From an uncultured bacterium (GTDB taxonomy: Bacteria; Bacillota_I; Bacilli_A; RFN20; CAG-826): DNA of 64,000 nucleotides. This document shows positions 33,656-52,826 of this stretch, piece by piece. How positions within the stretch are numbered: position 1 is the stretch's first letter; each line of letters opens with the position of its first letter. A model generated the notes under the pieces. That model saw nothing but the letters and a program-made list of their open reading frames with translations, was not told the origin of the DNA and ran no database searches. The translations under genes and the position numbers were made by a program. The DNA lies in assembly GCA_949290395.1 (NCBI GenBank), contig CASERQ010000004.1:12457-76456 (forward strand), read 5' to 3'.

Positions 33656-34488
33656 TATAATTTTTCTTCGATTTTTTCGCGTTTTAATTCAAGAGTTTCG
33701 CGAATTGAAATACCATCAATTATAAGTTTAACAACTTTTTCAAGTTCGGAATTAGAAGAGTAGTCAGCTTTACAAATATAATTTACTCTTCCATCTTCAA
33801 ATAGATGAGCGACTTTGTCTTGTCCGTTTTTAGGATAAACCGCAATTGAAGATCCACCATTTTCTTTAACAAGAATCATACAAGGAACATCAGTTAATCC
33901 ATCTCCCATATAAATCATATTTTGATAAATAATACGTCTTTTAGGAGTTTTTTCGTTGATTTCTTTATCATCGTTGGTGTTTATTACGCCTTTTGAGATT
34001 CTAAAAATGTATTGCGTTTTAAGAGTGTAGTTAACAGTGGTGCGTGGCCAAAAAGCAAGACCATTTTCATCATAAAGATATTCGCTACCAAAGACTTGTT
34101 TAAATTCTTTAAATATAGGACAACCTTCAACAATTTCTTTGTTGCCGCTTGTGATGAGATAGTGCTCTGCAATAAGCCCTCTTTGAGCGGCGTATTCATT
34201 GATTCTCGAAAACCAAGTGGTGACGCCATCAAAAAATTTGATGTTTTTGCCGCACTCCTTGAGAAACTCTTTATTAAGAGGAATGTTTTCTTCTTTAGCG
34301 CACTTTATCATCATATATAGATAACCTAAGATTTTATCCATATCATATTTTTTACAAAATTCTTCTGTGAGTGCCCAAAACTCTTCTGGAGTATATCCAA
34401 GTTTTGGTATGAAACTAAAATTTTGCATGTCTTGAAGAGCTAAAGTTCGATCAAAGTCATACATTAAAGCGATAATTGGTTTTGCCAT
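33655..34488 (-). CDS. HAD-superfamily hydrolase
   Basis: Motif I YDFDRTL at N-terminus, motif IV GDGLTDVP. 277 aa. Confidence 0.6.
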   Translation of the reverse strand: MAKPIIALMYDFDRTLALQDMQNFSFIPKLGYTPEEFWALTEEFCKKYDMDKILGYLYMMIKCAKEENIPLNKEFLKECGKNIKFFDGVTTWFSRINEYAAQRGLIAEHYLITSGNKEIVEGCPIFKEFKQVFGSEYLYDENGLAFWPRTTVNYTLKTQYIFRISKGVINTNDDKEINEKTPKRRIIYQNMIYMGDGLTDVPCMILVKENGGSSIAVYPKNGQDKVAHLFEDGRVNYICKADYSSNSELEKVVKLIIDGISIRETLELKREKIEEKL

Positions 34489-34508
34489 ATTTTCTTTACC
34501 TCGAAATT

Positions 34509-34538
34509 ATTCTATCAAATTAAGTAGATTTTAGTCAA
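34509..34538 (-). promoter_or_regulatory. Sigma-70 promoter for the HAD-ispD-S1-pgi operon (TTGACT - 18 nt - TAGAAT)
   Basis: Minus strand reads ttgact aaaatctacttaatttga tagaat, then gaggtaaag SD. Overlaps the divergent start region of the 34560 gene. Confidence 0.55.
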
Positions 34539-34559
34539 AAAAGGTGGTATTTTACGGGT

Positions 34560-35114
34560 ATGTTTCTAAATGTTTTACTTTCTACTAGAGAAACAGTAAT
34601 AACTGTAATTCTTATAATAATAGGAGTGGCTTTACTTGCTTATTTGATTTTGCTTAGTGTCTCCTTTTATTTTATGCATTACTTTAAAAGAGACATTAAT
34701 ATTAAAAAAGATTCCATTAATTTAATTCTTTTTCAAAAGATTGATTTATTAATTAAGTTATCTTTAATTATGGAACCATTTTTAGAAGAGAATAATCCTT
34801 TAAGATTAATGAGTGATAACAAAGAGTTTAAGTTATATCAAAAGATTGAACCAAGTGAATTTGAAGAGTTTTATGTATATACTGAAAAAATGCTTCAACT
34901 AGCTCAAAAAGTTTATATTGATTCTGACTTAAATGAATATAAGAAAACTGTTGAAGAAATCTTTTTAACAATAGAAGAGTTAAATCAAAAATATTTCCAA
35001 GCCACTCAACTTTATAACACCTCAGTTATTGCTTATAATTATTGGTACAATTTATTCTCAACAAAATGGGTTAAAAAATTATTTTTCATGAAAACTATAG
35101 ATTCAATCAAATAG
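34560..35114 (+). CDS. Hypothetical membrane-anchored protein
   Basis: N-terminal TM helix (ITVILIIIGVALLAYLILLSV), 184 aa. No family motif recognised. Confidence 0.45.
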   Translation: MFLNVLLSTRETVITVILIIIGVALLAYLILLSVSFYFMHYFKRDINIKKDSINLILFQKIDLLIKLSLIMEPFLEENNPLRLMSDNKEFKLYQKIEPSEFEEFYVYTEKMLQLAQKVYIDSDLNEYKKTVEEIFLTIEELNQKYFQATQLYNTSVIAYNYWYNLFSTKWVKKLFFMKTIDSIK

Positions 35115-35128
35115 ATGGAGGTACAAAA

Positions 35129-36826
35129 ATGAAATTTGAAGATATGAAGCTTAGAGTTCCTAATTTAAATAGGATCGAAGCACAAACTAGAGTTTTAACT
35201 GATTTACTTAAAAATGCTCAAAATGAAAATGACGCTATTAAAGCAGTTAACAAATATTTTCGCTTAGAAAATGATGTTAATAGCGATATCACAATTATTA
35301 CAATTCGCTTTACTTTAGATACGCAAAATGAAACATATCGTAAGGCTCAAGAAAAGGTAGATGAAATCTCGCCTCTAATCAATAATTATTTTAAAAGATT
35401 TGAAAAAGCAATGCTTGAATCAAGCTTTAGAGATGCATTAGAAAAGAAATTTGGAAAACTTCTTTTCACTCAAATTGAAAATGGGTTTAAAACATTTGAT
35501 GAAAAAATCATCCCTGAACTTCAAGAAGAAAATAAACTTGTAAGTGAATATGAAGCTTTACTTGCTAGCGCTGAACTTCACTATAAAGGAGAAGTACTTA
35601 ATCTTTCTCAAATTGGCAAATATATGTCTAGTGAAGATAGAGAAACCCGTATTGAAGCCGCAAAACTTTATTATGGATTCTTGAGTGAAAACGACGCAAA
35701 ACTTGGAGAAATTTACGATAAACTTGTAAAAGTTAGAACCAAGATGGCTAGAGAACTTGGATACGAAAACTATATCAAATTTGGCTATCTTAGACTTGGA
35801 AGAGTAGATTATGATGCAAAACTTGTTGAAGGATATAGAGAACAAATTAAACGTGATGTTGTACCTCTTGTCCATCAATTAAGAAAAAAACAAGCCAAGA
35901 GACTTGGCTTTAAAAACCCAATTTTCCTTGACTATAATCTTTTCTATAAGGGGGGCAATCCTAAACCAATTGGCCCAACAAGTTATCTTGTAGAATCAGC
36001 AAGTAAGATGTATCACGAAATGAATGAAGAAAGTGGTAAGTTCTTCGACTTCATGGTTGAAAATAACTTAATGGATTTAGACGCTAAAAAAGGAAAACAA
36101 GGCGGAGGATATATGACTTATATTCCTCGCTACAAAGCTCCATTTATTTTCGCTAATTCAAATGGAACATCAGGAGATGTTGATACACTTACTCACGAAG
36201 TAGGACACGCTTTCCAAGGATATTTATGTAGAAATATTAAAGTCCCAAGTTATCAATCTCCAACCTTAGAAGCTTGTGAAATTGATTCAATGTCGATGGA
36301 ATTTTTTGCTTATCCATGGATGAATCTTTTCTTTGGAGAAAATGCTACAAAATATAAGATGCATCATTTAGATGGCGCTATCTCTTTCTTACCATATGGA
36401 GCAGAAGTTGATGAATTCCAACACTTTGTTTATGAACATCCTGAAGCAACACATGAAGAAAGATGTGCTAAATGGAGTAAACTTGAAAAAGTCTATCGTC
36501 CATGGCTTGATTTCGGCGATTTTGAGTATCTTAAAAATGGCAAAATGTGGATTAGACAACATCACATTTATGGAACGCCATTCTATTATATCGACTATAC
36601 TTTAGCTCAAGTTTTAGCTCTTCAATTTAAATGTGAAATGGACAAAAATAGAGATAAAGCATTTAAGAAATATATTAAGCTCTTAAAGATGGGAGGAAAA
36701 TATCCTTTCTTAACTCTTGTTGAAAAAGATCATTTAAGAAATCCATTTATTGATGGAAACGTCATTAAAGTAATTAAACCTCAAATGAAAGTTCTTAAAG
36801 CTTTAGAAAAAGAAATTGAAGGATAG
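35129..36826 (+). CDS. pepF: Oligoendopeptidase F (M3B family)
   Basis: 565 aa. Zinc motif HEVGHAFQG and downstream E. ggagg SD. Confidence 0.85.
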   Translation: MKFEDMKLRVPNLNRIEAQTRVLTDLLKNAQNENDAIKAVNKYFRLENDVNSDITIITIRFTLDTQNETYRKAQEKVDEISPLINNYFKRFEKAMLESSFRDALEKKFGKLLFTQIENGFKTFDEKIIPELQEENKLVSEYEALLASAELHYKGEVLNLSQIGKYMSSEDRETRIEAAKLYYGFLSENDAKLGEIYDKLVKVRTKMARELGYENYIKFGYLRLGRVDYDAKLVEGYREQIKRDVVPLVHQLRKKQAKRLGFKNPIFLDYNLFYKGGNPKPIGPTSYLVESASKMYHEMNEESGKFFDFMVENNLMDLDAKKGKQGGGYMTYIPRYKAPFIFANSNGTSGDVDTLTHEVGHAFQGYLCRNIKVPSYQSPTLEACEIDSMSMEFFAYPWMNLFFGENATKYKMHHLDGAISFLPYGAEVDEFQHFVYEHPEATHEERCAKWSKLEKVYRPWLDFGDFEYLKNGKMWIRQHHIYGTPFYYIDYTLAQVLALQFKCEMDKNRDKAFKKYIKLLKMGGKYPFLTLVEKDHLRNPFIDGNVIKVIKPQMKVLKALEKEIEG

Positions 36827-36854
36827 AAGTAATAAGATTCTTAGAAAAAAATTA

Positions 36855-36884
36855 AAATAGCTTGCCCTGAGGCAAGCTATTTTA
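36855..36884. terminator. Bidirectional terminator between pepF and the TSCPD gene
   Basis: aatagcttgcc ctga ggcaagctatt stem-loop with flanking A/T runs. Confidence 0.65.
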
Positions 36885-37148
36885 CTAATTTTCTTTTAAT
36901 ATATCTGCAATTGCTAAGGCAAGTTGATCAGGACAACTTGTAGGTTTTCTCGCGCACGTTGTCCCTTTTAAGATATCTTTAATTTCTTCTAAGGTTCTTC
37001 CTTTACAAAGTTTTGCAACGCCCGCTGTATTTCCAGGGCATCCATATAAGAAAGAAACGCTATCTATAATGTGAGTTGAATCATCATAAGTGATTGTTAC
37101 ACTTTGAGAACAAGTGCCCACATTTTTATGAGTATATGTTTTAAGCAT
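36885..37148 (-). CDS. TSCPD-domain protein
   Basis: 87 aa with the eponymous TSCPDQL motif and conserved Cys residues. Confidence 0.6.
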   Translation of the reverse strand: MLKTYTHKNVGTCSQSVTITYDDSTHIIDSVSFLYGCPGNTAGVAKLCKGRTLEEIKDILKGTTCARKPTSCPDQLALAIADILKEN

Positions 37149-37729
37149 TAAAGTTTAACAATTTCTCCATAGACTTCGCCAAAGCAGTTTCCTGCATTGC
37201 ATTCATCGGTATCGATATGCATTGCAAGTGCATAGCTTGGAGAAACTCTAATTACTGTATCACCAAATACAATGTTTCTGCCATTATTTGCTTCAACTTT
37301 AACCCAAACAATGTCACCACTTTTTACATTAAACTTTTCTGCATCAGCTGGAGTCATATGAATATGACGTTTAGCAATGATACAACCTTCTTTAAGTTCA
37401 ATGGTTTTACCATTTTCTGGGTTTTTAATTGTAATAGGTGCGCTACCTTTAATATCGCCACTTTCTCTAACTGGAGCTTTGATTCCAAGAGTTCTTGCTT
37501 CAGTAGCGCTGATTTCAACTTGATTATCTTTTCTTTCTGGTCCAAGAATTGAAGCGAGCATGCTTCCTTTTGGTCCAATGATTTCTAATTTAGTAGTAGA
37601 TGCATATTGTCCTGGTTGGGAAAGCATTTTCTTTGGAGTTAACTCAAAATCTGGGCTAAATAAATAATCTAATGCTTCTCTTGTAACGTGAACGTGTCTT
37701 GCACTGGTTTCGACTAAAATCTTATCCAT
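37148..37729 (-). CDS. PduL-type phosphate acyltransferase (phosphate propanoyl/acetyl-transferase)
   Basis: Two PduL repeats with SARHVHV and AKRHIHM motifs, 193 aa. Confidence 0.6.
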   Translation of the reverse strand: MDKILVETSARHVHVTREALDYLFSPDFELTPKKMLSQPGQYASTTKLEIIGPKGSMLASILGPERKDNQVEISATEARTLGIKAPVRESGDIKGSAPITIKNPENGKTIELKEGCIIAKRHIHMTPADAEKFNVKSGDIVWVKVEANNGRNIVFGDTVIRVSPSYALAMHIDTDECNAGNCFGEVYGEIVKL

Positions 37730-37878
37730 TAATATTTCCTCCTCTTTAGCCGTATTTTATTATATCAAGTTTTGCTAATCGTGTGAGAAGAAAACGCACA
37801 ATATTGAAGCAGAGAATATGCTAAAAGTGAAAATTAGAGATTTACAAAGTTGATGATCTATGGTAGATTAATATGCAC

Positions 37879-37963
37879 GCGCGAGTGGCGGAACTGGTAG
37901 ACGCGTACGTTTGAGGGGCGTATAGGTATTCCTGTGTGAGTTCGATTCTCATCCCGCGCACCA
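37879..37963 (+). tRNA. tRNA-Leu (anticodon GAG), class II, CCA encoded
   Basis: gcgcgag-tg-gcggaactggtagacgc...anticodon loop ttGAGgg...gagttcgattctcatcccgcgcacca. One A/C mismatch in the acceptor stem. Confidence 0.75.
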
Positions 37964-37976
37964 CTATAAATCTTAT

Positions 37977-38018
37977 CCCCTATTTCACTAGAAGTTGAAA
38001 TAGGGGTTTTCTTTTGCT
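37977..38018 (+). terminator. Rho-independent terminator after tRNA-Leu(GAG)
   Basis: cccctatttcac / gtgaaatagggg-like stem (cccctatttcactagaagttgaaatagggg) followed by ttttctttt. Confidence 0.7.
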
Positions 38019-38316
38019 TAAAAGAGAACTTCGAAAAATAACCGTTTCGAACTTTCTCGGACTTCGGCTCTTAAGATTTTAAAAGGTGAATGCTGTGTGT
38101 TTTGAAGCGATAATCTCGCAAAATTCATATTATTTTTAGAAAAACTACTTAAATTTGTGCTTTTAATATTTTAATTTAAGCTTCTAATAATTCGGACAAG
38201 TTCGATAATAAGTTCGAACTATGTTTTTGACTTCTAACAACCTTCCCAACAAAATATTTAAAATTCTATGCTAATATAATATTGAAAAAGAATTAATTAT
38301 TATTTTTGGGGATAAT

Positions 38317-38778
38317 ATGACTTTACAAGCAATCTCTAATTTAGAAAATTACATTACGACTATTATATTTGGATGTGTAGCAATTATTTATAATCTTTTA
38401 TTTTTAGTATTAGGTATTATTTTTGTTATCAAGAAAACTGATCTTAATTATACTTTTGGATATAGAAGTGCTTTTGCTTTATCTTCAGCAAATAGATGGA
38501 GATGGTGTAATAAAGTATTCTTTTTCTCTGTATTTATAACTCAACCAATATTTTTAATTATGAATGTTGCAATTTTTATAGTTTCCTTAATTTATACCTT
38601 GTCATTTGCTTGGATTGTTCTTTCTTTTGCGATATCAATAGCAATACTAATTCCTATATCACTATTTGTTGAAATATACGGAAGAAGAAAGTTTAAAGAT
38701 GAAGATATAGGAGAAGTTAAGCCTTTAATAGAAAACGAGCAATCTAAAAAGCAAGAGATTGATGAGTTTTGGAGCTGA
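38317..38778 (+). CDS. Hypothetical small integral membrane protein
   Basis: 153 aa, 3-4 predicted TM helices, charged C-terminal tail. First gene of the accessory island. Confidence 0.45.
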   Translation: MTLQAISNLENYITTIIFGCVAIIYNLLFLVLGIIFVIKKTDLNYTFGYRSAFALSSANRWRWCNKVFFFSVFITQPIFLIMNVAIFIVSLIYTLSFAWIVLSFAISIAILIPISLFVEIYGRRKFKDEDIGEVKPLIENEQSKKQEIDEFWS

Positions 38779-38864
38779 TTGAACTGTATTGAGCCGCTAT
38801 AAAGTCGAATAACAGCGATTATTGACGTTTTCAATACGAAATCGATATTTTCTGAAAATTAATT

Positions 38865-39893
38865 TTACTCAATAATCTCTTTTTGTTGTTTTTCATTTGT
38901 ATTCTTATTTTCATATTTTTTAATACTCTTAAAGCCAAAATAATAGAAATTTCTCAATCTATTAGATAACTCCTCATTATCTAAAACTAAAGCATCGCTC
39001 CCAAAACGTAAAAAGTATTGGAATAGTTGGTTAATAGAAGCCTCAAAATAGTAAATATCATCTTCAATTAATATTGGTTTAGGTCGATTAATAAATATTT
39101 TTGTATAAGACTTTTGGCCTTTTTTAGTTAATTTAATTTTACATTTTATTATCGGAGAATTTATAAAGTGTGGCTCGTTTTTATCTAGATCTTTCTCTAT
39201 TTTTTCCTTTAAAGATGGAGATAAGTTGTCCTTAAAAGATCTAGAAACTCGCAAATCTTTTAATTTATAGAGGTTAATTACGTTATATGTAGTGGATGTG
39301 TAATAAATTAAATAGGCAAATTGTCTATCTTTTGAATTAAAAATACCTAATGGAGACACTTCGTATTTTATTTCTGTCCCCTTGTTATTTATAACTTTAA
39401 AGAAAATTTGTTTGTTGTTTTTAATGGCACTTTTAATTAAATCTATTTCTTCTTTAAATATAATTCTTTCTCTTTCGTCTTGATTAAGCTTTGCGTATTC
39501 ATTAAATAATTTCCTCAAATAACCGCTTAGAGTAAAGATGTATGAGTACTCGCTATATTCAATATCAAGTAAAGCGCCTTCAGATTCTTTTGTTGATATA
39601 AATGTTAATTCGCAATCTTTTTTAGTATCTGATTCTTCGTTTTTTTCTTTTATTTTCAATATTTCATGAACTAAATCTTCCTTGTTTTTATTGTCTTTTA
39701 AAAGGAGAAGTAGGTTATTTTCAAGCTTGCTAATTTTACTATTGATTACTTCATAGTAATTAGAAATTAGTCGATTAATAAACCTATTTTTGTTTGAACT
39801 GCCATCATTTTTTGCAAATCTAAAAGCATCAATATCATTTAGTAATACTGAATACGTGTAATATGATAACATTACTTTATATTTGTGTGACAT
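38865..39893 (-). CDS. Hypothetical protein (342 aa)
   Basis: Long ORF with K/E/N-rich composition. No recognisable catalytic motif. Confidence 0.45.
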   Translation of the reverse strand: MSHKYKVMLSYYTYSVLLNDIDAFRFAKNDGSSNKNRFINRLISNYYEVINSKISKLENNLLLLLKDNKNKEDLVHEILKIKEKNEESDTKKDCELTFISTKESEGALLDIEYSEYSYIFTLSGYLRKLFNEYAKLNQDERERIIFKEEIDLIKSAIKNNKQIFFKVINNKGTEIKYEVSPLGIFNSKDRQFAYLIYYTSTTYNVINLYKLKDLRVSRSFKDNLSPSLKEKIEKDLDKNEPHFINSPIIKCKIKLTKKGQKSYTKIFINRPKPILIEDDIYYFEASINQLFQYFLRFGSDALVLDNEELSNRLRNFYYFGFKSIKKYENKNTNEKQQKEIIE

Positions 39894-40019
39894 AAGTATA
39901 TATTTTATCTACCTTTTATTTATTAAATTTATCAAATAGTACGATATTTATCAATAAAATTACATACTATATAATTTTTATTTTCTAGCATTTCACTTAA
40001 TAAAATTTACACTTATAAT

Positions 40020-40600
40020 GTTCATGTAACCTGATGAAGTTGGTCTTACAGACCGTCAGGATTCTTAGAATGTGAGTGGTTTAATAAGGATACTTGTTAA
40101 ATGACGAATATCTTATATAGAGATATATAAGGAAGGCTATTAAATTAACCTTATTCTAAGAAGTGCTTTTATTAAATTTTAAAAGTTAAAGCAACGAGTG
40201 ATCCGGATCTATAAGTGACTAAAAGCTAGCTGGTCCGCCATACTGCTAGTAGTGTGAGAGACTACCAGGTAAGAGGCAAACTCAATAAGGATCTCTGAGG
40301 TGACGTTTAAGCAATTAAACTATAAGGATTGCAAAGGTACGAGTAGCTAAATATAGACTCAGCTTGGCGAATGAATGGTTATCTTTTTAGGAAAGTAATA
40401 CCGACGTTTAGTGAAAGTTACTAGGTTTATCTAGTTTAATCTTTAAGTCTTCGATAGAAGATGGGGTTAGTAGTGTATAAGTCGCTCTTATACGCTTGGG
40501 CTAACTTCGATTAATGGCTGAAGAAACAGAGTTTAATAAAAGTAAGGCGAAGGCCTACGCTTTAAAAATATTTACCCATCAATAAATGGGTAAATATTTT
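40020..40600 (+). ncRNA. Candidate large structured RNA of unknown class (about 575 nt)
   Basis: Strong GC enrichment against AT-rich flanks; no ORF over 40 codons. Putative promoter (tttcac...17 nt...tataat at 40013-40018). Strong terminator aaaaatatttacccatcaataaatgggtaaatattttttt at 40563-40600. Confidence 0.4.
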
Positions 40601-40737
40601 TTTATTATTCGATTTCTTTAAGTAATATTTTATTGATTTAGTAAATGCCTCGTGACAGCATTTTCATGTTCATACAACTTCATGTTGCATCATTCTTCTT
40701 TAAATATATTGGATGATTTATAAATTTAATTTTTTAA

Positions 40738-40772
40738 AATGTCCAAAAATTCGGACATTTATTTTTTTGTAT
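40738..40772 (+). terminator. Hairpin + T-run (aaatgtcc aaaaattc ggacattt atttttttg), terminator-like
   Basis: 8-bp stem and T7 tract about 50 nt upstream of the FtsH-like gene. Could be an attenuator or the end of a short transcript. Confidence 0.45.
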
Positions 40773-40821
40773 TTAGAACGATAAAAAATCTGGTTTAGAT
40801 TTAAGGCAAGGAGATTTAGAA

Positions 40822-42051
40822 ATGGAAAAAAATGTATTCTTAAAAAACGTTTATGGTTATAAAAAGATTAAAGATGAGTTGTTCTTAATTAGAAGTTGGT
40901 ATCTAGATGAAAAAATTAAGGAAGAAAAGAAAGAGTTTCTTCCTAAAGGTATCCTTTTCTATGGTGAACCAGGCAATGGCAAAACTTTATTATTAAGGGA
41001 ATATTCAAAAAGCTTTGGTTTTAAGGTGTTTGTATTTGAAGGAAAGGAGGAAAACTTAAACAAGAATTTAATTAGTATTTACGAGAACGCCAAAAAAGAA
41101 AAAAATGCAATTGTTGTTATTGATGAATTAGATAGGTTGGTTAAAAGAGATGATAAATTAGAAAGAATCCTACAAACCCAACTTGATGGTCTTAATAACG
41201 AAGGAACTGTCCTCACTTTAGCAAGTGCTAACGATTACGATGCCTTGCCAGATGCTTTATTAAGAGAAGGTCGATTTGATAGAAAATTCTGTATTGATGT
41301 CGAAGATAAAAAAGATAATAAAGAAATTTTAGAAAAGCTTTTAAAAGAAAGAGAATTTAATATTAATGAATATGAACTTGAAGAATTAAACCTGCAATTA
41401 TTTGGTGAACCCATCAGTAAAATCAAATCCCTCTTGAATAGCGTATGCTTTAGATATGGGAAAAGTGCAAGCATTGATGATTTCTTAAAGGAATATTCTT
41501 TTAACGAATCAGGACATATTCAAGATGATAACTTAAATGTACCGGATTATGTTGCTGTTCATGAAGCAGGACACGCTTTATATGCAAAATTATTCGCTAA
41601 AAGATTAATTTTCTTAAGAGTAAATTGTAATAAAGAAGGTGGGAAAACGCACTGCTCTAGTTATGATAATATTCAAGACAGCGTTTATTGCTATAATCGT
41701 ATCGAAACGTCTCTTGCAGGAATGGCAGCAGAAGAAATTATCTTCGGCAAGCATAATGTTGGATGTAACAATGATATGAAAAAAGCATACGAAATGTCTT
41801 ATACAATTATGAATAATTCTATGCTTAATGGGTTAGATTTCTACTCACCAGCCCTTTATACAATTAATAACGGTCCTTCTGAATATGAAATGATGAAACA
41901 TGGAATTAGAACAAGTAAATTTATTGAAAAAGAGTTTAAACTCGTTAAAAAAAGATTAAAAAAATATAAAAAAGAAATCTTATTAATCGCAAAAATTATT
42001 AAAGAAAAGAGATGTTTGACTAGAGACGACATTAAAAATGTATTAGATTAA
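40822..42051 (+). CDS. Soluble FtsH-like AAA+ ATPase / M41 zinc-metalloprotease fusion (no TM or periplasmic domain)
   Basis: Walker A GEPGNGKT, Walker B VVIDELD, AAA arginine finger LREGRFDRKF (cf. FtsH RPGRFDR), HEXXH HEAGHAL, FtsH-like LAGMAAEEIIFG. aaggag SD. Confidence 0.8.
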   Translation: MEKNVFLKNVYGYKKIKDELFLIRSWYLDEKIKEEKKEFLPKGILFYGEPGNGKTLLLREYSKSFGFKVFVFEGKEENLNKNLISIYENAKKEKNAIVVIDELDRLVKRDDKLERILQTQLDGLNNEGTVLTLASANDYDALPDALLREGRFDRKFCIDVEDKKDNKEILEKLLKEREFNINEYELEELNLQLFGEPISKIKSLLNSVCFRYGKSASIDDFLKEYSFNESGHIQDDNLNVPDYVAVHEAGHALYAKLFAKRLIFLRVNCNKEGGKTHCSSYDNIQDSVYCYNRIETSLAGMAAEEIIFGKHNVGCNNDMKKAYEMSYTIMNNSMLNGLDFYSPALYTINNGPSEYEMMKHGIRTSKFIEKEFKLVKKRLKKYKKEILLIAKIIKEKRCLTRDDIKNVLD

Positions 42052-42084
42052 TTCAAAATGAGAATAAAAAAGAAGGAGTTAAAT

Positions 42085-43536
42085 ATGACATACGATATCA
42101 CTCGACTAGTAGAATTCGTGTTAAAAAAGTATAGTGATTATTACCATCCAATGTATAAGTCAGATGTACATAAAAAGGTTAATGAGTTAATTCGATTAGA
42201 AGACCACGAAGCAAAAGATATCGATAGAAAAACTATTTATAGTGCTATTGAAAAGCTAAAGAACGGGCCAAAAGAAACTAAAATTGTTGATTGTGAAAAC
42301 AAAAGAAAAATTTATTTCGATAATTGGGAAAAACTTAATGACTTTATAATTCTCTTTAGTAAACTTGATCCTGAAAATAAACAAGGGGCTCTAGATTTAT
42401 TTAAGGATGAAATTAGCGAATACCAGTATAAGAATTTCCAAAATATCATCAATGAAAACTTTAATAAAAGTGGCGATATTTATAAAAGCAAAAGCCGAAT
42501 TCTTCGTGAAAATCAAAATAAAATTACAGATATTATTAAAGAAAGAAAATGTGCAAGAATTACCGATTTTAATGGAGACACAAAAAATATTATCCCTCGA
42601 GAAGTTTTATTAAATTCTGACGGCAATATTTGTGTTAAAGGAATCACATTTAACGATCAAAGAACTAGAGGAAAAGTAATGGCAATAGACTTTTCAAATA
42701 TTAGAGAAGTTGATGAGGTAAGTTTTTTTGACATCGAAGCTATTTGTGACAACGTATGTAGAAATGTGAATCCAGAGGATAAAAAGGAGATTAAAGAATA
42801 TTATTCAAAGATGAACTTCCTTTCAACAGATAACTTATTTACTGCTGATTCAATTGAAGATATTTTAAAGAATGAAGATTTAAAAATTTATGTTGAAGAT
42901 GAAGTCATGTATTATTCTTATTCAACCGACGAATTAGATTTTGATCTTTTTTTCGATTTTATGAATGAGAAATTGGGTGAATTCAAAAAGAATGATAAAT
43001 TACTTAATAAAATAAAAAAAGTCTTCTATTCATCATTATTTTTGCAAAATAATAAAGGTGACAATTGCTGGGAAGACAAAAAGAGTATTGCTGAAGATTT
43101 AAACGATCTTGCAAAGATTACAGAATACGACATCGTCTATTATTCAATTCTAAAAAAACTATATGTTGATGGGGATAAATATGAATGCGCGAAAGCAATA
43201 GAAGTAGATAAACTTATTAAACGTCCTAAGCAATATGTTTCTGATTATGATGAATTCGATACATTAGCTAGTGTTACATGTGCTAAAAGAAGGATTGACT
43301 GGGCCTTATTCTTGGTTCACCAAAACACCCATTTTCTTTGTTATAAAGGCTGCGACAAAAAAATATTTAAAAAATTAATTTTGCTGGTCGAAGAAAATTG
43401 TGAATTTAACTCTTACCTTATGACTATTCTTAAATCTGCTTTAGAGAAAGCGGGAATCGTTGTATTAAAGAATTCTCAAGCTGACAATTTAGAAGAAATT
43501 AAAAAAATGTATTTCAAATACTTTGATATTGAATAA
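42085..43536 (+). CDS. Hypothetical protein co-transcribed with the FtsH-like gene; N-terminal wHTH-like segment
   Basis: Begins 34 nt after the upstream stop with gaaggag SD. N-terminus RKTIYSAIEKL resembles the HTH of DeoR/WYL-type regulators; the rest has no recognised domain. Confidence 0.45.
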   Translation: MTYDITRLVEFVLKKYSDYYHPMYKSDVHKKVNELIRLEDHEAKDIDRKTIYSAIEKLKNGPKETKIVDCENKRKIYFDNWEKLNDFIILFSKLDPENKQGALDLFKDEISEYQYKNFQNIINENFNKSGDIYKSKSRILRENQNKITDIIKERKCARITDFNGDTKNIIPREVLLNSDGNICVKGITFNDQRTRGKVMAIDFSNIREVDEVSFFDIEAICDNVCRNVNPEDKKEIKEYYSKMNFLSTDNLFTADSIEDILKNEDLKIYVEDEVMYYSYSTDELDFDLFFDFMNEKLGEFKKNDKLLNKIKKVFYSSLFLQNNKGDNCWEDKKSIAEDLNDLAKITEYDIVYYSILKKLYVDGDKYECAKAIEVDKLIKRPKQYVSDYDEFDTLASVTCAKRRIDWALFLVHQNTHFLCYKGCDKKIFKKLILLVEENCEFNSYLMTILKSALEKAGIVVLKNSQADNLEEIKKMYFKYFDIE

Positions 43537-43820
43537 TTAGAATGGTAGAAATTGTCAACGTGTGAAGAACAAAACTTTAAAAAATTTGAGAAATTGTTTT
43601 TATTTCTTAAACTATTTCAGGAATTAAATCTTTAATAAAATCAGTAGTTTCATATGTGATAGGTAAAGATAGTAAGCCATTAAAAATTTGCTTATTCAGC
43701 ATTTTAGTCTAACTAATTCAAAATATAAATTGAACTTAGCTTATGCTATTTTAGAATCATAGTAAAATCCATGTTATTCATTAATTTATATTTAAGAATT
43801 ATGTATGAAAGGAGCATGTT

Positions 43821-44636
43821 ATGGAAAAAACAGATTTTATGAAACTTATAATAGATAATGTTTCAAATTTTAAAGGCAGCGTTGGAAAAAGGTACCTTTC
43901 ATGGGAATATTGTTATGAAGAATTTTATAAAGCGATAGAAGATGTAAAAAACGGGAAAAGCATTGATAATAATAGATATTTATATCTGAGTCTTCATTTA
44001 GCATTTTATCTTGCTTCCTGGGGCATGTATCGAGGATCTTCGTTTCTTTTGAAATTCGACTATAAAGTTCATTTACCAACAGTAAAATTGATTTTAAATG
44101 AAAAATATTCTTCATTGCTTTGTTTTAATCGGGACAAAACAGCCAAGAATTATAATCAAAATTTGGAACTGTTATTTGGGAAGGATGGCAATGAAGGTTT
44201 GGTGCAGGAAATTAAAGACATCTATCTAAAGTTAAAGTTAGAAGTAAAAAATTCTAAAAATAATAGCACAATAGTTAGTGTTAGCGATGAAACCGATGCT
44301 AAGGAAAATAGCGATGAATATGTATCTGAGATCTTAGTAAGTAAGATTTTATTGGGAACTTTAGGGTGTGTTCCTGCATACGATACTATGCTAAAAAGAG
44401 CTTTAAAATCAGCAAGAGATGATTATGGACTTAAAATTTGTTCTAAGTTCGGAAAAAAATCTATTGAAAGCATAGTTGGATTTTGTAATGACATGAAAAA
44501 GTTGCTTGATAATAGAGAAAAAATATTTTTAGAAAACAATGTTAAAATAGAATATCCACTGATGAAAATTTTAGATATGGGTCTTTGGGAAATTGGAAAA
44601 CAAGAGATTGACAAAGAAAAAGAGGGAACGAAATGA
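43821..44636 (+). CDS. Hypothetical protein (271 aa)
   Basis: aaaggag SD. No motif recognised. Confidence 0.45.
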   Translation: MEKTDFMKLIIDNVSNFKGSVGKRYLSWEYCYEEFYKAIEDVKNGKSIDNNRYLYLSLHLAFYLASWGMYRGSSFLLKFDYKVHLPTVKLILNEKYSSLLCFNRDKTAKNYNQNLELLFGKDGNEGLVQEIKDIYLKLKLEVKNSKNNSTIVSVSDETDAKENSDEYVSEILVSKILLGTLGCVPAYDTMLKRALKSARDDYGLKICSKFGKKSIESIVGFCNDMKKLLDNREKIFLENNVKIEYPLMKILDMGLWEIGKQEIDKEKEGTK

Positions 44637-44940
44637 AGAAGAAATACGTCAATTTTCGCACTTTTATTCGCATGCATTCCTTCTAACGTTTTGCTGAAAA
44701 TATAACAAAGCCTTTAAATTGATTTATTTAGTTAAATTGTAACTTTGCTTGTTAGAGCAATACTGGGTTCTTAGAAGAAAAATAAATAGGAGATGTTGTT
44801 GCCAAGGCTTTTAAAGTAATTTTAGGGCAGTTTAGATAAAATTAATTAATTTAAAATAAGGTACGTTAAAAGTAAAGTTAATCTCATAGAATAAAATAAT
44901 ATTTTGGGAAAAATTAAAACTTTTGATTGGAGTAAAGCTT

Positions 44941-45702
44941 ATGACACAAAAAGTAATTGTAGAAAATGTTGAAATGGAGAAGATATCAAAATTATTAGAG
45001 TTAAAGGAAGAGTACTTGTCCACCCTTGATGATAAAATATACAATAGTTTACTTGTATTAAGGAAATATTTAGAAGTCGATAAATCTTATAATGGTAAAT
45101 TTACGACCTTTAAATATAACAAGAATACGAAATTAATTATTGTTGGCACTATAACTCCGCCAGAAACTGATTTTTATTACTGTAAATATAGCAAGAAACC
45201 AAATTATAATACTTTGAATTATTTATTCGACTATTATAAAGACAAAGTCACTTTAATAGAGGATGAAAGATACAAAGAAGATATAAACAATTTAAAAAAG
45301 GATCTTGCAAACGATAAAAATAATAAAAATTATTATATCGACTTGTTAATAAATGCGCTTAATGATAGAGGGGTTTTATTCTTGGATGTAGTCAAAAAAG
45401 TTTTGAGACCTGCTTCCTCTAAAGATGCAGATTTTGTTTGCTTATCTTTGGATTGGGAAAGTTTTTTAGAACCTTTAAAAGATTTTTTTGCTAAGGATTC
45501 GTCGCTTAAGATTGTTACAAACAGCTTAGATGCTGAAGGTTATTTTAAAAAAATAATCAAAAAAGTGAATGTTAAAACAGGATCTAATTATAAATTTAAA
45601 GAAAATATGAAGAATTACAAACGTCTCACACAAATAACAAGGGGAGAAAAAATGAAAAACAAGAATAAAGAAGAACGGGGGGAATTATTAAGTAGCTTAT
45701 AA
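44941..45702 (+). CDS. Hypothetical protein (254 aa)
   Basis: Start at MTQKV (ggag SD). Lys/Asn-rich C-terminus. Confidence 0.4.
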   Translation: MTQKVIVENVEMEKISKLLELKEEYLSTLDDKIYNSLLVLRKYLEVDKSYNGKFTTFKYNKNTKLIIVGTITPPETDFYYCKYSKKPNYNTLNYLFDYYKDKVTLIEDERYKEDINNLKKDLANDKNNKNYYIDLLINALNDRGVLFLDVVKKVLRPASSKDADFVCLSLDWESFLEPLKDFFAKDSSLKIVTNSLDAEGYFKKIIKKVNVKTGSNYKFKENMKNYKRLTQITRGEKMKNKNKEERGELLSSL

Positions 45703-46070
45703 ATCTTTTTTAAAACTATTGCCGATTTCTTTCTTATTTTTCTTAATATAACTTTAAAAATAATCTATAGAAGTTATGCCTGAAAATTAAACAAATTAAA
45801 TTCGATGTATTATTAAAAATATATTGGTGGTTGCATCTTTTTATGTTTTTATAATTAAACAAATTAAGAGATATAATTTATAAATGATTAGTGAAGATTA
45901 ATCTAAATATTGGGAATGAAAATATTCCTGTTCCCGTCAAATCAATACCATAAGAGTGCACATAAAATTTGCATTATTTTCTTAATAATGTACATATATT
46001 AGAACATTTTGGGATGTTTTCAGTTTTTATTTTCCTAAAGCCTATAATGTATCATGCAGGAGGAAAATAG

Positions 46071-46697
46071 ATGATATTCAGCAGTGAAATTAAATTAAAA
46101 AGTTATATTGAAGTTCTTAAAAATGAACCTTTAAATGCGATTATTGAAGAATATAAAGGTTTTGTTAAACTCACAGATGTTGTTGATTTTTTTATAAAAA
46201 GAATAGCTTTTACATTTGCAAAAATTTCTAAAGAAATTAAAAACTATTATATTAAAGATAAGAATTTTAAAGAATTAGAAAAATATTCATATAATATATG
46301 TCACCGAGCTTATTTAAGACTAAATAATCTGGATTTAATCTTAAAAAATCAAAGTTTTGAAAAGTTGATTGAATTATATAAAGACTCTGTTATTAGTAAA
46401 GTTCCCGATTTATCAAACAAAGCAAGCATGTTGAAAGATATAAAAAGACTTTATAATGTTTATTTTGAACGTAATGGTAAATTTAGTGAACTTAAAGATA
46501 AAATATTTAGGGCTAAAGCCGTCTGTCTAGCTTGTTTAGAAAAATTTGGGGTAAAAATTCCTAATACAGAAGGACTTTTTATGCACGCTTTTGTCGCGGA
46601 TTATTTTTATGAAACAGAAGCTCTTAAAAAGGCTAACGCACTTGCAGAAGACTTTTATTTATTAGAATTATTTTCTATTTGCTCGAGTTTGAATTAG
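46071..46697 (+). CDS. Hypothetical protein (208 aa)
   Basis: caggagg SD and TATAAT box upstream. No motif recognised. Confidence 0.45.
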   Translation: MIFSSEIKLKSYIEVLKNEPLNAIIEEYKGFVKLTDVVDFFIKRIAFTFAKISKEIKNYYIKDKNFKELEKYSYNICHRAYLRLNNLDLILKNQSFEKLIELYKDSVISKVPDLSNKASMLKDIKRLYNVYFERNGKFSELKDKIFRAKAVCLACLEKFGVKIPNTEGLFMHAFVADYFYETEALKKANALAEDFYLLELFSICSSLN

Positions 46698-46715
46698 AAT
46701 TTGTGGAGGTTGTAG

Positions 46716-47429
46716 ATGCTTTATATTGATTATGTTATTAAAGAAAGATATATAAACGAAACATTTAAAAATATTACTAGAAATGAAGATGCTTTAGATA
46801 CATTGAATAAAGAGTCATTTAATTTGCGTGTTCAAAAAAATCTTTTAAACGAAGTATACCTCGATCTATTAGCGTTCTTAGATAAGTTATTAATTTCAGG
46901 CAGAAAATATAATGGTCCTGAAATTTATGATTATAAAGAAATATTAGAAGAATTTCTTAAAAATATCAAAATGAAAATTCATGAAACAAATACAAATCTT
47001 CATAAAGCAACTCATATTGAAGTTAGTTTATTTAATTGTGTTGATGTAAATGAAGATTTGATTATTTATAAAAGATTCATCAAATTCAATAAATTTCCTA
47101 AATATTTAAAGCAGAAAAATATAGATGATTATAAGTTGTTTCTATCTTGTGAATTTGATGATTGCTTTGGCGCAGGCGGACTACTTACTAAAATAAAAGG
47201 TGTAATTACTGATCTTAGCGATTATGTAGAGCTATTTGAACAACAAGTGATCGACAGCAAAAGTAAACTTGAAGAAGCATTAAGTAACTGCAAGTATTTC
47301 ACAAACGACCTTCCAGTGTTAACAAGAGGAAGCAGTTTTGAGATGCTTTATTCATTTTTACTCACGAAATTATTAAATGGATTAAAGAAAATATATAACG
47401 AAGGAGTTGGTTATGTGACTCTGAATTAA
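46716..47429 (+). CDS. Hypothetical protein (237 aa)
   Basis: gtggagg SD, 18 nt after the previous stop (co-transcribed pair). Confidence 0.45.
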   Translation: MLYIDYVIKERYINETFKNITRNEDALDTLNKESFNLRVQKNLLNEVYLDLLAFLDKLLISGRKYNGPEIYDYKEILEEFLKNIKMKIHETNTNLHKATHIEVSLFNCVDVNEDLIIYKRFIKFNKFPKYLKQKNIDDYKLFLSCEFDDCFGAGGLLTKIKGVITDLSDYVELFEQQVIDSKSKLEEALSNCKYFTNDLPVLTRGSSFEMLYSFLLTKLLNGLKKIYNEGVGYVTLN

Positions 47430-47542
47430 TTTTGCATTATTAAATAACTTTTAATGCGCTTTAAAATGAAAATATTTTTGAAGCAATATTTTGTTATTCA
47501 TGATTAATCTTTAATATGAAAATTGAAAGGTAATTAAATAGA

Positions 47543-48118
47543 TTGAATCAATTATTAAAAATTATAAAAGAAAGGAGTTTTATCATTAAAATAATTTTAT
47601 TGGATAGAAACTATATGATGGTTTTAGCACGGCAAAAATATTTTGAGAGTGAAAAAGAAGTTGAAATAGTTTGTGATGCAGTAGAACATTATTTATCAAA
47701 AAACTTTGTTGATGGAATCGTAACTCCGGGAAATTCTTATGGAATAATGACTGGCGGCTTTGATAAAGGTATTAGAAATTATTTTGGTTTGGCTTTAGAG
47801 AATAAAATCCAAAATTATATAGATTCAAATTTGCATTTTAAACAACAAGTTGGAACAAGTTTTATTATTGAAGGTGGCAAAAATAATATTAAAGTTATTC
47901 ATACACCTACAATGGAAGAACCTTCTGAAATTAAAGATTTAAACGTAATTTACCTTTCCACTATGTCTTCTTTAAAACTTGCAAAGAAAAACGATTTAAA
48001 TTCTGTAATTCTCCCTGCTTTTGGTGGAGCAACAGGGAAAGTAAATTTCTTTAAAGTTTCTGAATTAATGTATAAAGCTTTCAAAGATTTTAAGAAGCAA
48101 TCACTTAAATGCGTGTAA
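47543..48118 (+). CDS. Macro-domain-like protein (putative ADP-ribose binding/processing)
   Basis: VDGIVTPGNSYGIMTGGFDKGIRNYFG aligns to the macro core [27 protein letters not shown] (N-G-GG-D-G-I-G positions conserved). Start uncertain: TTG 47543 or ATG 47615. Confidence 0.45.
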   Translation: MNQLLKIIKERSFIIKIILLDRNYMMVLARQKYFESEKEVEIVCDAVEHYLSKNFVDGIVTPGNSYGIMTGGFDKGIRNYFGLALENKIQNYIDSNLHFKQQVGTSFIIEGGKNNIKVIHTPTMEEPSEIKDLNVIYLSTMSSLKLAKKNDLNSVILPAFGGATGKVNFFKVSELMYKAFKDFKKQSLKCV

Positions 48119-48184
48119 AAATAATTTAAAAGGGTTATATTGTATTGAAAGGTTATTGAGTAATTTTGATTAAAAAATTATATT

Positions 48185-49411
48185 ATGAGTAAATTTTCAA
48201 CAAGTGAAATTCATCGCATTGAACTTTTAATCACTATTTCTTATTTATTAAAATTTAGTGATTCAAAACATCCTGTTTCGCAACTTGATATTTGTCGTTA
48301 TGCTACAAATTTTGGTTTGAAGTTTGATGAAAATAATCTTGCTGGAAATGACATTAGAAGACAAAGAATTAAAGATGTTTTAGTTTTTCTTGAAGATCTT
48401 TCGAATAGAAATTTCATTGATTTTCCTTTTAAAGTTTTGTCTACGGATAAAGGAAAATATTATATAGAGAATAAGTTTCGTCTTTCAAAAGGGGATATTT
48501 TTAATGTTGTTTTATCTATTGAAAATAATAGGTACATCAAAGACGAAGTGTCGAAAGACTTAATTGATAAAATATTAAACATTTTATCTTCAAAATATGA
48601 AAAAATCGATTTTGAGGCTACATTAAAACAGGTAATTTCTCCAAAACGCAAGTGTTCGAATTATACAGCAGCATCCCTTAGTAAGTTGATGAATGCCATA
48701 AAAAAAGAGAGAATAGTTCAGCTAAGGCAATTAAAATATGAATATGATGAGATTAAAAAAGATTTCATTTTAAAAGACGTGAAAAAATGGTATCGAGTTT
48801 ATACAATTAAAGAATATAATGGCAAATTATATGCTTTGTTAATTGCTGTTGTTGATGGGGAAATCATTTTAGAGGACGTTAGATCTATCTACATTACAGG
48901 TCAAAAAAAGCGGACTTTTGCAGAAGATTTCGTTAAAAATAGAGATTTAAATCGTTTATTTATTGAAAATAACGTTAACGGAAAATCGATAGATGCTTAT
49001 ATAAAAGAAGCTAAAATGCCTTTAAATCCAAATACAAAGAAGATATCTTTCTCTTTTAAAGGATTGTATTTAAGAATGATAGAAACATCGTTTAGAGATT
49101 ATTTTTCTGAAACTTTAAATTTTGTAATTTGTAATGATTTTAAAATTGAAAATACGGGCAATGAGACAAGACTTATTAGTTTAGATTCTCAATCTTCGGA
49201 AAAACTGACGGAGAAATACATGTTATCTAAAATAATTGATGAGAACATTAACGTCATTGTCAATATTTCAATTAATATGGACGGCTTTACAAATTGGATA
49301 TTATCCAATCCATTGATACCGCAAATAATTACAGTTTATAATGGTCATATAAATAAAACTTTAGCTCAACATTTTCAAGCGTTAGCAAAGAAATACGAAA
49401 AATATCTATAG
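48185..49411 (+). CDS. Hypothetical protein with N-terminal HTH-like and central WYL-like beta-rich segment (putative regulator)
   Basis: N-terminus IHRIELLITISYLLKFSDSKHPVSQLDICRYATNFGL is HTH-like. KWYRVYTIKEYNGKLYALLIAVVDGEIILEDVRSIYI resembles the WYL core (WYL...RxFRLDRI). Confidence 0.35.
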   Translation: MSKFSTSEIHRIELLITISYLLKFSDSKHPVSQLDICRYATNFGLKFDENNLAGNDIRRQRIKDVLVFLEDLSNRNFIDFPFKVLSTDKGKYYIENKFRLSKGDIFNVVLSIENNRYIKDEVSKDLIDKILNILSSKYEKIDFEATLKQVISPKRKCSNYTAASLSKLMNAIKKERIVQLRQLKYEYDEIKKDFILKDVKKWYRVYTIKEYNGKLYALLIAVVDGEIILEDVRSIYITGQKKRTFAEDFVKNRDLNRLFIENNVNGKSIDAYIKEAKMPLNPNTKKISFSFKGLYLRMIETSFRDYFSETLNFVICNDFKIENTGNETRLISLDSQSSEKLTEKYMLSKIIDENINVIVNISINMDGFTNWILSNPLIPQIITVYNGHINKTLAQHFQALAKKYEKYL

Positions 49412-49816
49412 GCATAATTTTTGAGTTTATTTTTACTAAAAATTAGTATAAAAAGCGCCGACGTTGGTAGTCTTATATTCCCAAATGTGACGCTTTTTAT
49501 TTTATTTTTATCACTTACCTTTTTAACTAAAAAATGACTTAAGTTCAATTTGTGCTTTTTTATTTTTTGAATATTTTAGTTGCTACATCAAAAACACCAT
49601 CTAAATATTAATGGTTATATATTTAATTTTTGTTCACTTCTATGAACATTTTTGATTTTAAACGCAAATAAGTTCATTTAATAATTAAACTATCATCAAG
49701 GAGGAATGAATTGCAAATTGACTTAAATTTACATAAAAACTTTTAAATAACAAAAAACAACCAAAAATCAATTTTATGAAAGTTTTGCATGGTTTTCGTC
49801 TATTTATTTATAGAAA

Positions 49817-50110
49817 ATGAAATTGGAGTTTGAGATTAGTGATGATGATTACAAAATGCTGCAAAAGTATTTTTCTCTAAACGGAGAAACCTTAGAAAGC
49901 ATTATTCAAAGTAAAATCAAAGAAGGTCTAAAAAGTATAGAAACAATTAAAAAAGAGAATGAAAAAAATAAAGTTGCGATGAAAATTATAAAAAATATAA
50001 AAGAGAGGAGACTTGTAGATTTGAGTATTGTCAAAATACAAAAAATATATAATATAGGTTTTCCGCTTTCGGGAAAGATATATTTTTATCACAAGTTGTT
50101 CGTTGAATAG
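49817..50110 (+). CDS. Hypothetical small protein (97 aa) immediately upstream of the second FtsH-like gene
   Basis: ORF ends at the second FtsH-like gene, 38 nt before its start at 50151. No SD. Helical, K/E-rich. Confidence 0.35.
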   Translation: MKLEFEISDDDYKMLQKYFSLNGETLESIIQSKIKEGLKSIETIKKENEKNKVAMKIIKNIKERRLVDLSIVKIQKIYNIGFPLSGKIYFYHKLFVE

Positions 50111-52824: not shown

Positions 52825-52826
52825 AT

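Follow-up and report, generated by a model that had tools for sequence, protein, structure and literature searches.

An unnamed family of soluble FtsH-type AAA+/M41 proteases without pore loops, encoded beside WYL-type regulators in variable islands of uncultured Bacilli

Using a 64,000-nucleotide stretch of DNA from an uncultured member of the Bacilli (GenBank assembly GCA_949290395.1, contig CASERQ010000004.1, positions 12,457 to 76,456 of the forward strand; the whole stretch is referred to here as the window), we analyzed a gene at 40822..42051 whose 409-amino-acid (aa) product joins an AAA+ ATPase module to an M41-type zinc peptidase, and which we call copy 1 to set it apart from a second such gene in the same island (copy 2). 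We observe that copy 1 belongs, as an intact gene, to a family of cytosolic FtsH-type proteases of ~410 aa that has no name, and that this family lacks a membrane anchor as well as both of the pore loops with which FtsH grips and threads its substrates. The conserved neighbour of the family is a winged helix-turn-helix (wHTH) transcription factor of the wHTH-WYL(-WCX) type, rather than the specific 483-aa open reading frame (ORF) that follows copy 1 in the window, and the family genes sit in variable, defence-type islands, the other contents of which are swapped between strains. The explanation that we favour, and to which we give about an even chance, is that copy 1 encodes a cytosolic protease which defence or stress islands carry as a module under tight repression, acting through a mechanism that we infer below. 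In the current view, FtsH-type proteases are anchored in the membrane and thread their substrates, and a family with their ATPase and protease chemistry but without anchor and pore loops would need some other way of choosing and admitting substrates. Its company of WYL regulators, its occasional S-adenosylmethionine (SAM) riboswitch, and its setting among restriction, toxin-antitoxin, and ADP-ribose genes make it a candidate for an undescribed defence or stress module, in hosts (uncultured gut and rumen Bacilli) where few defence systems have been tested.

The FtsH-type family without anchor or pore loops

The gene, its motifs, and the hairpin nearest to its start codon are as follows.

40822..42051, + strand: copy 1, FtsH-like AAA+/M41 zinc protease, 409 aa, with pore loops 1 and 2 deleted
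Copy 1 residues 48-55, D101/E102, N137, and R148/R151: Walker A, Walker B, sensor-1, and arginine fingers
Copy 1 residues 247-251 and D318: zinc-site motif HEAGH and third zinc ligand
40737..40770, + strand: second terminator-like hairpin with T-run, ~50 nucleotides before the copy 1 start codon

The sequence-only reading of the window had taken copy 1 for an anchor-less, cytosolic FtsH-type protein, and our analysis confirms this. Pfam places an AAA domain at residues 44-159 (E 2.6e-22) and a Peptidase_M41 domain at residues 243-407 (E 5.1e-11), and the motifs quoted in that reading (GEPGNGKT, VVIDELD, REGRFDRKF, HEAGH, and AAEEIIFG) are all present in the translation. The highest 19-residue Kyte-Doolittle mean is 0.79, compared with 2.2-2.7 in canonical FtsH from the same search, with no hydrophobic or membrane segment by this measure and no match to PF06480 in Pfam. 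The 928 nucleotides 5′ of copy 1 contain no + strand ORF of at least 50 aa and are taken up by a ROOL RNA (see below) and two terminator-like hairpins, and the N-terminus of copy 1 is flush with those of ~45 aligned family members of ~410 aa. Because the upstream DNA is thus an RNA gene plus hairpins, and because the N-termini of relatives coincide, an anchor hidden by a mis-called start or a frameshift is ruled out.

The AlphaFold2 model of copy 1, built on the family alignment, has a predicted local distance difference test score (pLDDT) of 89.9, and its top Foldseek matches in the PDB are 3kds, the cytosolic part of FtsH (template modelling (TM) score 0.78), and AFG3L2 (TM 0.82). Copy 1 therefore resembles FtsH and the m-AAA and i-AAA proteases (MEROPS M41) in its whole-chain fold, and it also resembles them in the fusion of an AAA module to an M41 peptidase, in a second region of homology with two arginine fingers, and in the HEXXH motif and aspartate ligand. 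FtsH, however, has transmembrane helices, a periplasmic domain, and pore loops, none of which is found in the copy 1 family, and it is encoded by a housekeeping gene, whereas the copy 1 family occurs in variable islands beside WYL regulators. Against the NCBIfam FtsH equivalog TIGR01241, residues 3-342 of copy 1 align with 100.5 bits, below the cut-off of 600. Failing on anchor, pore loops, and equivalog score, copy 1 is predicted to use FtsH chemistry without being an FtsH orthologue. The structural matches also include diverged FtsH relatives, i.e., the FtsHi/Ycf2 chloroplast motor subunits (8xku, 8xks). FtsHi proteins have lost the protease site and kept motor function and the membrane anchor; the copy 1 family shows the opposite pattern, with the protease kept and the anchor and threading elements lost.

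Our search of 5.8 billion clustered proteins identified the family as ~80 sequence clusters (P0001-P0082) that share both domains, measure 395-480 aa, and show 28-54% identity, below which the same search returned canonical FtsH of 540-700 aa with 24-31% identity. No source gives any of these clusters a name, and their hosts are uncultured gut and rumen Bacilli, ‘Mollicutes’, Erysipelotrichaceae, and Candidatus Enteromonas; a scan of metagenome contigs returned mainly canonical FtsH and few extra family loci. The sequence-only reading had called a soluble two-gene module of this kind undescribed; in the literature searched we found no paper on such a protein family, and searches on FtsH-like or M41 proteins in anti-phage defence, and on SAM riboswitches with anti-phage systems, returned nothing describing it. 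The comparison with phytoplasma ftsH paralogues made in that reading is not required for our interpretation. Two family members are associated with a winged-helix domain of the FtsK_gamma type, which is fused to the protease in P0053 (precomputed Pfam) and encoded just 3′ of the family member in locus L181 (9386-9802; weak Pfam match).

Ten residues do not vary among 45 family sequences (K54, D101, E102, N137, R148, R151, H247, E248, H251, and D318). The sequence-only reading had proposed an alignment as a check on the catalytic HEXXH with its third ligand and on the pore-loop phenylalanine; the zinc site is intact (H247/E248/H251 and D318), and the phenylalanine is absent from copy 1, both pore loops being deleted. 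In an alignment to canonical FtsH, six residues are missing from the family precisely at the pore-1 loop, where the canonical sequence reads F[VA]G[VL]G and copy 1 only KEENL, and ~9-11 residues are missing at the pore-2 loop, which follows Walker B. Walker A and Walker B are separated by 40 residues in the family versus 46-47 in canonical FtsH, and Walker B and the (L/M)DG motif by 18 versus 27. Of 29 canonical sequences, 25 contain an aromatic-hydrophobic-Gly motif; of 75 family members, 1 does. The linker between strand beta2 (68-72) and helix alpha2 (79-91) in the copy 1 model is 6 residues long. Judged by its conserved residues, the family keeps the elements of an ATP-hydrolysis ring, i.e., Walker A and B, sensor-1, and the trans-acting arginine fingers, as well as those for zinc proteolysis (HEAGH plus aspartate), with metal binding and activity being predicted.

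This conservation bears on two other explanations. If copy 1 were an ftsH paralogue in decay or under neutral drift, without a role of its own, it might also be truncated relative to FtsH, be without its pore loops, and occur in multiple copies, but the length and all catalytic residues are conserved over ~80 clusters with identity down to 27%, the fold is predicted with confidence (pLDDT 89.9), and gene neighbourhoods are conserved, and we regard decay as highly improbable. A poison subunit, i.e., one that uses its conserved protease and AAA interfaces to co-assemble with the essential membrane FtsH of the host and stalls the enzyme, so that growth arrest acts as abortive infection, would be consistent with ring-forming elements (arginine fingers and M41) being kept and translocation loops being lost, and tight transcriptional control would suit a toxic product. 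Mixed rings are doubtful, however, because identity to canonical FtsH is only 24-28%, and a strictly conserved proteolytic site would be needless for a mere poison; we think this explanation improbable, if somewhat less so than decay.

WYL-type regulators and SAM-I riboswitches beside the family genes

We clustered all ORFs of 37 genome loci plus the window, the loci being mostly contigs of metagenome-assembled genomes fetched with one peptide pattern. Only one cluster (C1, 330-557 aa) recurs widely beside FtsH-like genes, and it does so in every protease subfamily. Of 17 C1 members, Pfam recognises WYL in 10, with E 3.2e-10 at best, and WCX in 7, with E 6.2e-8 at best, and their N-termini are winged-helix-like; a PDB profile search with the C1 alignment gave zero matches. 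Among 29 non-redundant FtsH-like genes with at least 3 kb of flank on both sides, 22 are accompanied by a WYL-type gene no more than 3.5 kb away, which in most cases precedes the FtsH-like gene in the same orientation and is sometimes divergent or downstream, and the reverse look-up from C1 homologues again lands on FtsH-like genes. For example, the order in locus L189 is C1, a 104-aa ORF, and an FtsH-like gene, and in locus L190 it is McrBC, an FtsH-like gene, homologues of the 208-aa, 237-aa, Macro, and 259-aa ORFs of the window (described below), C1, an IS110 element, and a homologue of the small window ORF C50. A pattern of three to four genes also recurs, consisting of a WYL gene, a variable middle gene, sometimes an 80-aa repeat protein (cluster C4), and the FtsH-like gene. 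Pfam gave a weak PDDEXK_4 match alone on the middle genes of two loci (L183 and L029), and the middle genes in L007, L012, and L186 are unassigned. The WYL-type genes of the window and the loci with the recurrent pattern are as follows.

38865..39893, - strand: WYL-domain protein C6, 342 aa, divergent from copy 1 (PADLOC PDLC01652, E 1.1e-11, residues 147-315)
48185..49411, + strand: C1 member of the long subtype, 408 aa, clustering with 21 neighbours of FtsH-like genes
L183 5112-9257; L029 5800-10075; L011 2480-6219; L007 1809-5522; L186 4952-8237: loci with the WYL, middle gene, and FtsH-like pattern

C6 also has a weak Pfam WYL match, and it is kept in the same position at L001, L178, L176, and L036.

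A second device is found upstream of some family genes, where SAM-I riboswitches scoring above the Rfam gathering threshold are present in the leaders of FtsH-like genes or of short operons in defence-type islands.

L020 5843-5970; L033 5666-5754; L034 5155-5243; L185 7163-7250; L099 852-976; L017 906-989: SAM-I riboswitches

In L020, the SAM-I aptamer and terminator run straight into the ribosome-binding site and start codon. A SAM-I riboswitch is present at 3 of the 7 loci that have no WYL gene (L020, L033, and L034), and at some homologues it is present instead of, or besides, a WYL gene. The presence of two interchangeable upstream control devices before a constant protease suggests that the protease is the regulated payload; SAM-I control would turn it on when SAM falls, which would make it an unusual regulon member. 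The window itself contains no SAM-I riboswitch. No known riboswitch or structured leader was found before copy 1, with the leader (40602-40825) showing no Rfam match and no unusual fold, and copy 1 has no recognisable promoter of its own, a promoter scan being no better than on shuffled sequence.

Gene order of this kind is known from WYL-regulated defence operons. BrxR-BREX, CapW-CBASS, and the actinobacterial PafBC also have a wHTH-WYL-WCX gene immediately upstream or divergent, in a defence-island setting; they differ in that the regulator here goes with a soluble FtsH-like protease, and the likeness comes from gene order. Our literature search on WYL with FtsH or M41 found no such pairing. 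CapW, BrxR, and PafBC sense single-stranded DNA or related signals. By analogy with these three, we propose that the WYL repressor (or SAM, at riboswitch loci) would keep the protease off, and that the protease would be made upon DNA damage, infection, or SAM loss. Ring formation is expected because the arginine fingers are retained, and the hexamer may then be an ATP-gated, non-threading protease acting on loosely folded or specifically docked targets.

Several points weigh against this explanation. WYL regulation is assumed from gene order, with no operator or promoter identified; a detectable WYL neighbour is missing at 7 of the 29 well-flanked genes; the C1 member of the window (48185..49411) has no direct Pfam WYL match and is placed by clustering and alignment; and the 483-aa ORF has no WYL or WCX match in Pfam or PADLOC. 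The matches of the FtsH-like copies in PADLOC-DB v2.0.0 are to a generic AAA module, named IetA, and the loss of the pore loops could reflect a lost protease-unfoldase function rather than a new mode. Finally, a connection between a WYL regulator and an FtsH-type protease is known neither from experiment nor from any described system, and for this reason we infer function from context only.

The same pairing could instead form a switch, in which the FtsH-like protein degrades the adjoining wHTH-WYL repressor once its WYL domain has bound a signal and so derepresses the variable cargo located between or next to the two genes, as an ATP-dependent analogue of ImmA/ImmR, CapP/CapH, and IrrE/DdrO. 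These systems likewise have a zinc protease beside an HTH regulator in mobile or defence loci, and a functional analogy is possible, but ImmA, CapP, and IrrE are small, ATP-independent, COG2856-type proteins with XRE-type repressors (not WYL), and there is no sequence relationship. A pairing that persists over very divergent subfamilies is expected of an interacting pair, the variable gene is often sandwiched (WYL - X - FtsH-like), and two FtsH-like genes bracket swappable cargo in both the window and L176. Nevertheless, the SAM-riboswitch loci without a WYL gene (L020, L033, and L034) retain the protease, a ring without pore loops would have difficulty in unfolding a dimeric repressor, and the established WYL regulators CapW, BrxR, and PafBC are not known to require a protease. 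We consider the switch fairly unlikely.

The 483-aa ORF, sister-strain exchange, and ROOL RNA

The ORF downstream of copy 1, and the point at which homology with a sister strain ends within it, are as follows.

42085..43536, + strand: 483-aa ORF with a winged-helix N-terminus that appears related to the wHTH-WYL class; remainder unassignable
Window 42190 and L176 11369: homology breakpoint with the sister strain, ~35 codons into the 483-aa ORF; left edge of swappable cargo

The sequence-only reading had joined copy 1 and this ORF into a soluble two-gene module, and had described the ORF as having a strong Shine-Dalgarno sequence and an HTH-like N-terminus. This description is accurate, in that AAGGAG lies 6 nucleotides before an ATG at 42085, with a gap of 33 nucleotides past the copy 1 stop, and in that residues 1-80 are modelled by AlphaFold2 as a confident winged helix (helix-helix-helix-strand-strand, pLDDT 76-87); pLDDT is below 50 elsewhere and 46 overall. 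Using hhalign, the 483-aa ORF together with P0122, its only homologue, matches the C1 profile at 94.4% (E 8.8e-8, residues 5-156), and the ORF alone at 50.8%. Residues 156-201, at the expected WYL position, are beta-rich with pLDDT below 50, and the hhalign match ends at 156. These profile and model matches point to a far-diverged relative, in its N-terminal part, of the wHTH-WYL partner class.

An exhaustive HMMER search of 1.84 billion representatives with the 483-aa ORF found P0122 as sole distant homologue (E 1.6e-5) plus a 40-residue fragment, and a word-indexed search found the ORF itself and P0122 only. P0122 is located in L188, between a homologue of the window 259-aa ORF and an FtsH-like gene. 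Comparison with contig L176, from the sister strain, demonstrated 98.7% identity to window positions 30828..42190 (blastn) and none thereafter, and the junction sequences on both sides of 42190 were read directly. Between the two strains, 2 of the 409 residues in the FtsH-like protein and 1 of the 570 nucleotides in ROOL are different. After the junction, L176 contains a 40-codon stub, a MazG-like gene, an SLFN-type helicase, a 209-aa ORF, a 335-aa WYL protein, and a second FtsH-like gene. The 42190 junction resembles a cargo-exchange scar. In L001 and L178, the next-closest loci (54% identity), Macro or HTH_3+HipA genes are present downstream, not the 483-aa ORF.

These findings separate the two parts of the two-gene proposal. 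The class of partner, i.e., wHTH-WYL, is conserved, whereas the 483-aa ORF is not a fixed partner, being a near-orphan and swapped in L176. The sequence-only reading had itself named absence of the partner from homologous loci as what would refute its module; our neighbourhood comparison shows the ORF to be missing in L176, L001, and L178, and the module is therefore largely refuted as far as the 483-aa ORF is concerned. A dedicated soluble system of the FtsH-like protein plus this ORF would still account for their close spacing and strong Shine-Dalgarno sequence and for the adjacency of P0122 to an FtsH-like gene in L188, but the ORF is essentially an orphan among the representatives searched, a strain with a near-identical protease has replaced it and left only a stub, and the closest relatives carry other genes downstream, and we give such a system little chance. 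In the repressed-module explanation that we favour, the 483-aa ORF would be a fast-evolving, dispensable member of the regulator/partner class and not a fixed second subunit.

The RNA gene upstream of copy 1, between the C6 WYL gene and copy 1, and its counterparts at other loci are as follows.

40007..40576, + strand: ROOL RNA (RF03087), full length (model 1-574), 195.5 bits (gathering 99.1), E 1.7e-42
39948-39975 and 39992-40019: promoter-like sites of ROOL
40564-40601: terminator hairpin of ROOL
L001 5247-5827; L178 7244-7828; L176 9186-9755; L020 5196-5730 (- strand); L016 10092-10641 (- strand): other ROOL genes

Four distinct loci, i.e., the window, L001, L016, and L020, have a full-length ROOL (195-216 bits) no more than 3 kb from FtsH-like genes. 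Its placement in L001 and L178 is as in the window; in L020 it is on the opposite strand, 270 nucleotides upstream and just before the SAM riboswitch, and in L016 it is between two FtsH-like genes. These four ROOLs have diverged greatly from one another in sequence, and the association is therefore not the result of one recent transfer. The structure of ROOL has been solved (PMC12286853), no function or protein partner has been reported for it (PMC5737381, PMC12286853), and among the papers searched we found none naming ROOL together with FtsH; the repeated adjacency seen here is a testable lead on this RNA.

One explanation of this adjacency is that the FtsH-like protein is a functional partner of ROOL, for example by binding to the ROOL nanocage, loading it, or being under its control. 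The four loci with highly divergent ROOLs are consistent with this, as is the finding that ROOL directly abuts the gene leader in three of them. On the other hand, most FtsH-like loci are without ROOL, its orientation differs between loci, the window ROOL has its own terminator, and ten ROOLs on phage contigs (L192-L201), which score higher (283-333 bits), are part of tRNA arrays and have neither an FtsH-like gene nor a C1 gene close by; the linkage could arise if ROOL and the FtsH-like genes both favour variable regions near tRNA genes. We see such a partnership as a slim prospect, and the same holds for a more far-reaching proposal, in which the protease and its WYL partner would be the first protein coupled to the ROOL nanocage (docked, sequestered, or controlling its turnover), and the WYL/SAM-gated module a new anti-phage system of gut Bacilli. 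The linkage between ROOL and FtsH-like genes is real but facultative, and it may come from shared residence in tRNA-proximal variable regions. Two of the ROOL-carrying phage tRNA arrays also contain a partial match to OLE RNA (RF01071; 53.5 bits, gathering 50, model 439-592), at L193 10084-10167 and L199 507-590.

The second copy, island content, and known systems

The remaining features of the island and its surroundings are as follows.

50103..51482, + strand: copy 2, FtsH-like AAA+/M41 protease, 459 aa if read from TTG 50103 (443 aa from 50151, the start chosen by gene callers)
44923..47429, + strand: three unnamed ORFs of 259, 208, and 237 aa, which recur with the copy-2 module elsewhere
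47543..48118, + strand: Macro-domain protein (ADP-ribose binding or hydrolysis; Pfam Macro E 2.5e-13, PADLOC DarG E 1.8e-6)
49817..50110, + strand: small ORF C50, 97 aa, between C1 and copy 2, with a 53% identical homologue in L190
37879..37963, + strand: tRNA-Leu(gag), separate from the five-tRNA cluster and ~2 kb to the left of the island
30709..31151, - strand: tRNA cluster Leu, Lys, Gln, Tyr, Val
28594..29943, - strand: AAA_14 + DUF4143 ATPase, with similar genes (cluster C3) at L007, L010, L022, and L190

The sequence-only reading had also placed a second ATPase-protease in the same island, and copy 2 is indeed one, with Pfam matches to AAA (E 7.2e-17) and M41 (E 1.8e-16) and 27% identity to copy 1; it scores 109.7 bits against TIGR01241, below the cut-off of 600. 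By gene-by-gene homology, window positions 44923..51482 form a conserved seven-gene set, i.e., the 259-, 208-, and 237-aa ORFs, Macro, C1, C50, and the FtsH-like gene. In L190 (3760-11726), this set is present in permuted order, adjoins McrBC, and is interrupted by IS110, and the homologues there are 35%, 37%, and 36% identical for the 259-, 208-, and 237-aa ORFs and 73% identical for Macro. A homologue of the 259-aa ORF is present in L188 too, and the order C1, C50, and FtsH-like gene is repeated in L035. The three unnamed ORFs have no Pfam, PHROG, or PADLOC match.

The island extends from tRNA-Leu/PduL (37148..37963) to a rhamnose operon (52827 onward). Genes neighbouring family members include HsdR, GmrSD, McrB/McrBC, AAA_13/AAA_23 ABC-type ATPases, HipA, and ParE/Phd, as well as PD-(D/E)XK nucleases, a restriction endonuclease, an SLFN helicase, and MazG. 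We rejected a phage origin, the best IMG/VR matches having 26-28% identity and annotated phages at most 24% over the full length, with PHROG matches that are weak and of unknown function; a plasmid origin was likewise rejected, with matches to canonical ftsH only, at no more than 28.5% identity. A tRNA-integrated mobile element was considered and set aside, with no integrase among the ORFs scanned, no att-like repeat, and no stretch of 12 nucleotides or more from the tRNA-Leu 3′ end directly repeated within 38050..53500.

PADLOC-DB v2.0.0 (2023) returned only WYL, IetA-like AAA, and DarG-like Macro matches on the island ORFs. IetAS, which consists of the AAA+ protein IetA and the subtilase IetS, resembles the present family in combining an FtsH-related AAA module with a protease in a defence context (PADLOC IetA, E 1e-9 to 6e-11), but the PADLOC match covers the AAA domain only, and the protease here is a fused M41 domain, not a separate subtilase. 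The two copies score 28.3 and 30.9 bits against the IetA equivalog NF042959, below its cut-off of 510, and Pfam and PADLOC found no IetS subtilase among the island ORFs; identity with IetA was rejected on the score (28 bits versus 510) and the absence of a subtilase nearby. FtsH-type AAA domains also occur in predicted conflict systems, namely the MoxR-vWA ‘FtsH ternary’ systems (Kaur et al. 2020, PMC7159879). These have two AAA domains, the first inactive, with MoxR and vWA partners, and are found in multicellular Actinobacteria and Deltaproteobacteria (PMC7159879); MoxR and vWA partners are not present here, and this identity was rejected.

Genes for ADP-ribose processing (Macro, PARG, and ADP-ribosylglycohydrolase) recur near FtsH-like genes at eight loci, which hints at a possible link to ADP-ribosylation conflicts. 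Their positions are as follows.

Window 47543..48118; L001 7320-8039; L033 7310-8068; also L190: Macro
L018 7938-9509: PARG
L020 1112-1906; L025 1715-2758; L027 3036-3926; L185 6205-7050: ADP-ribosylglycohydrolase

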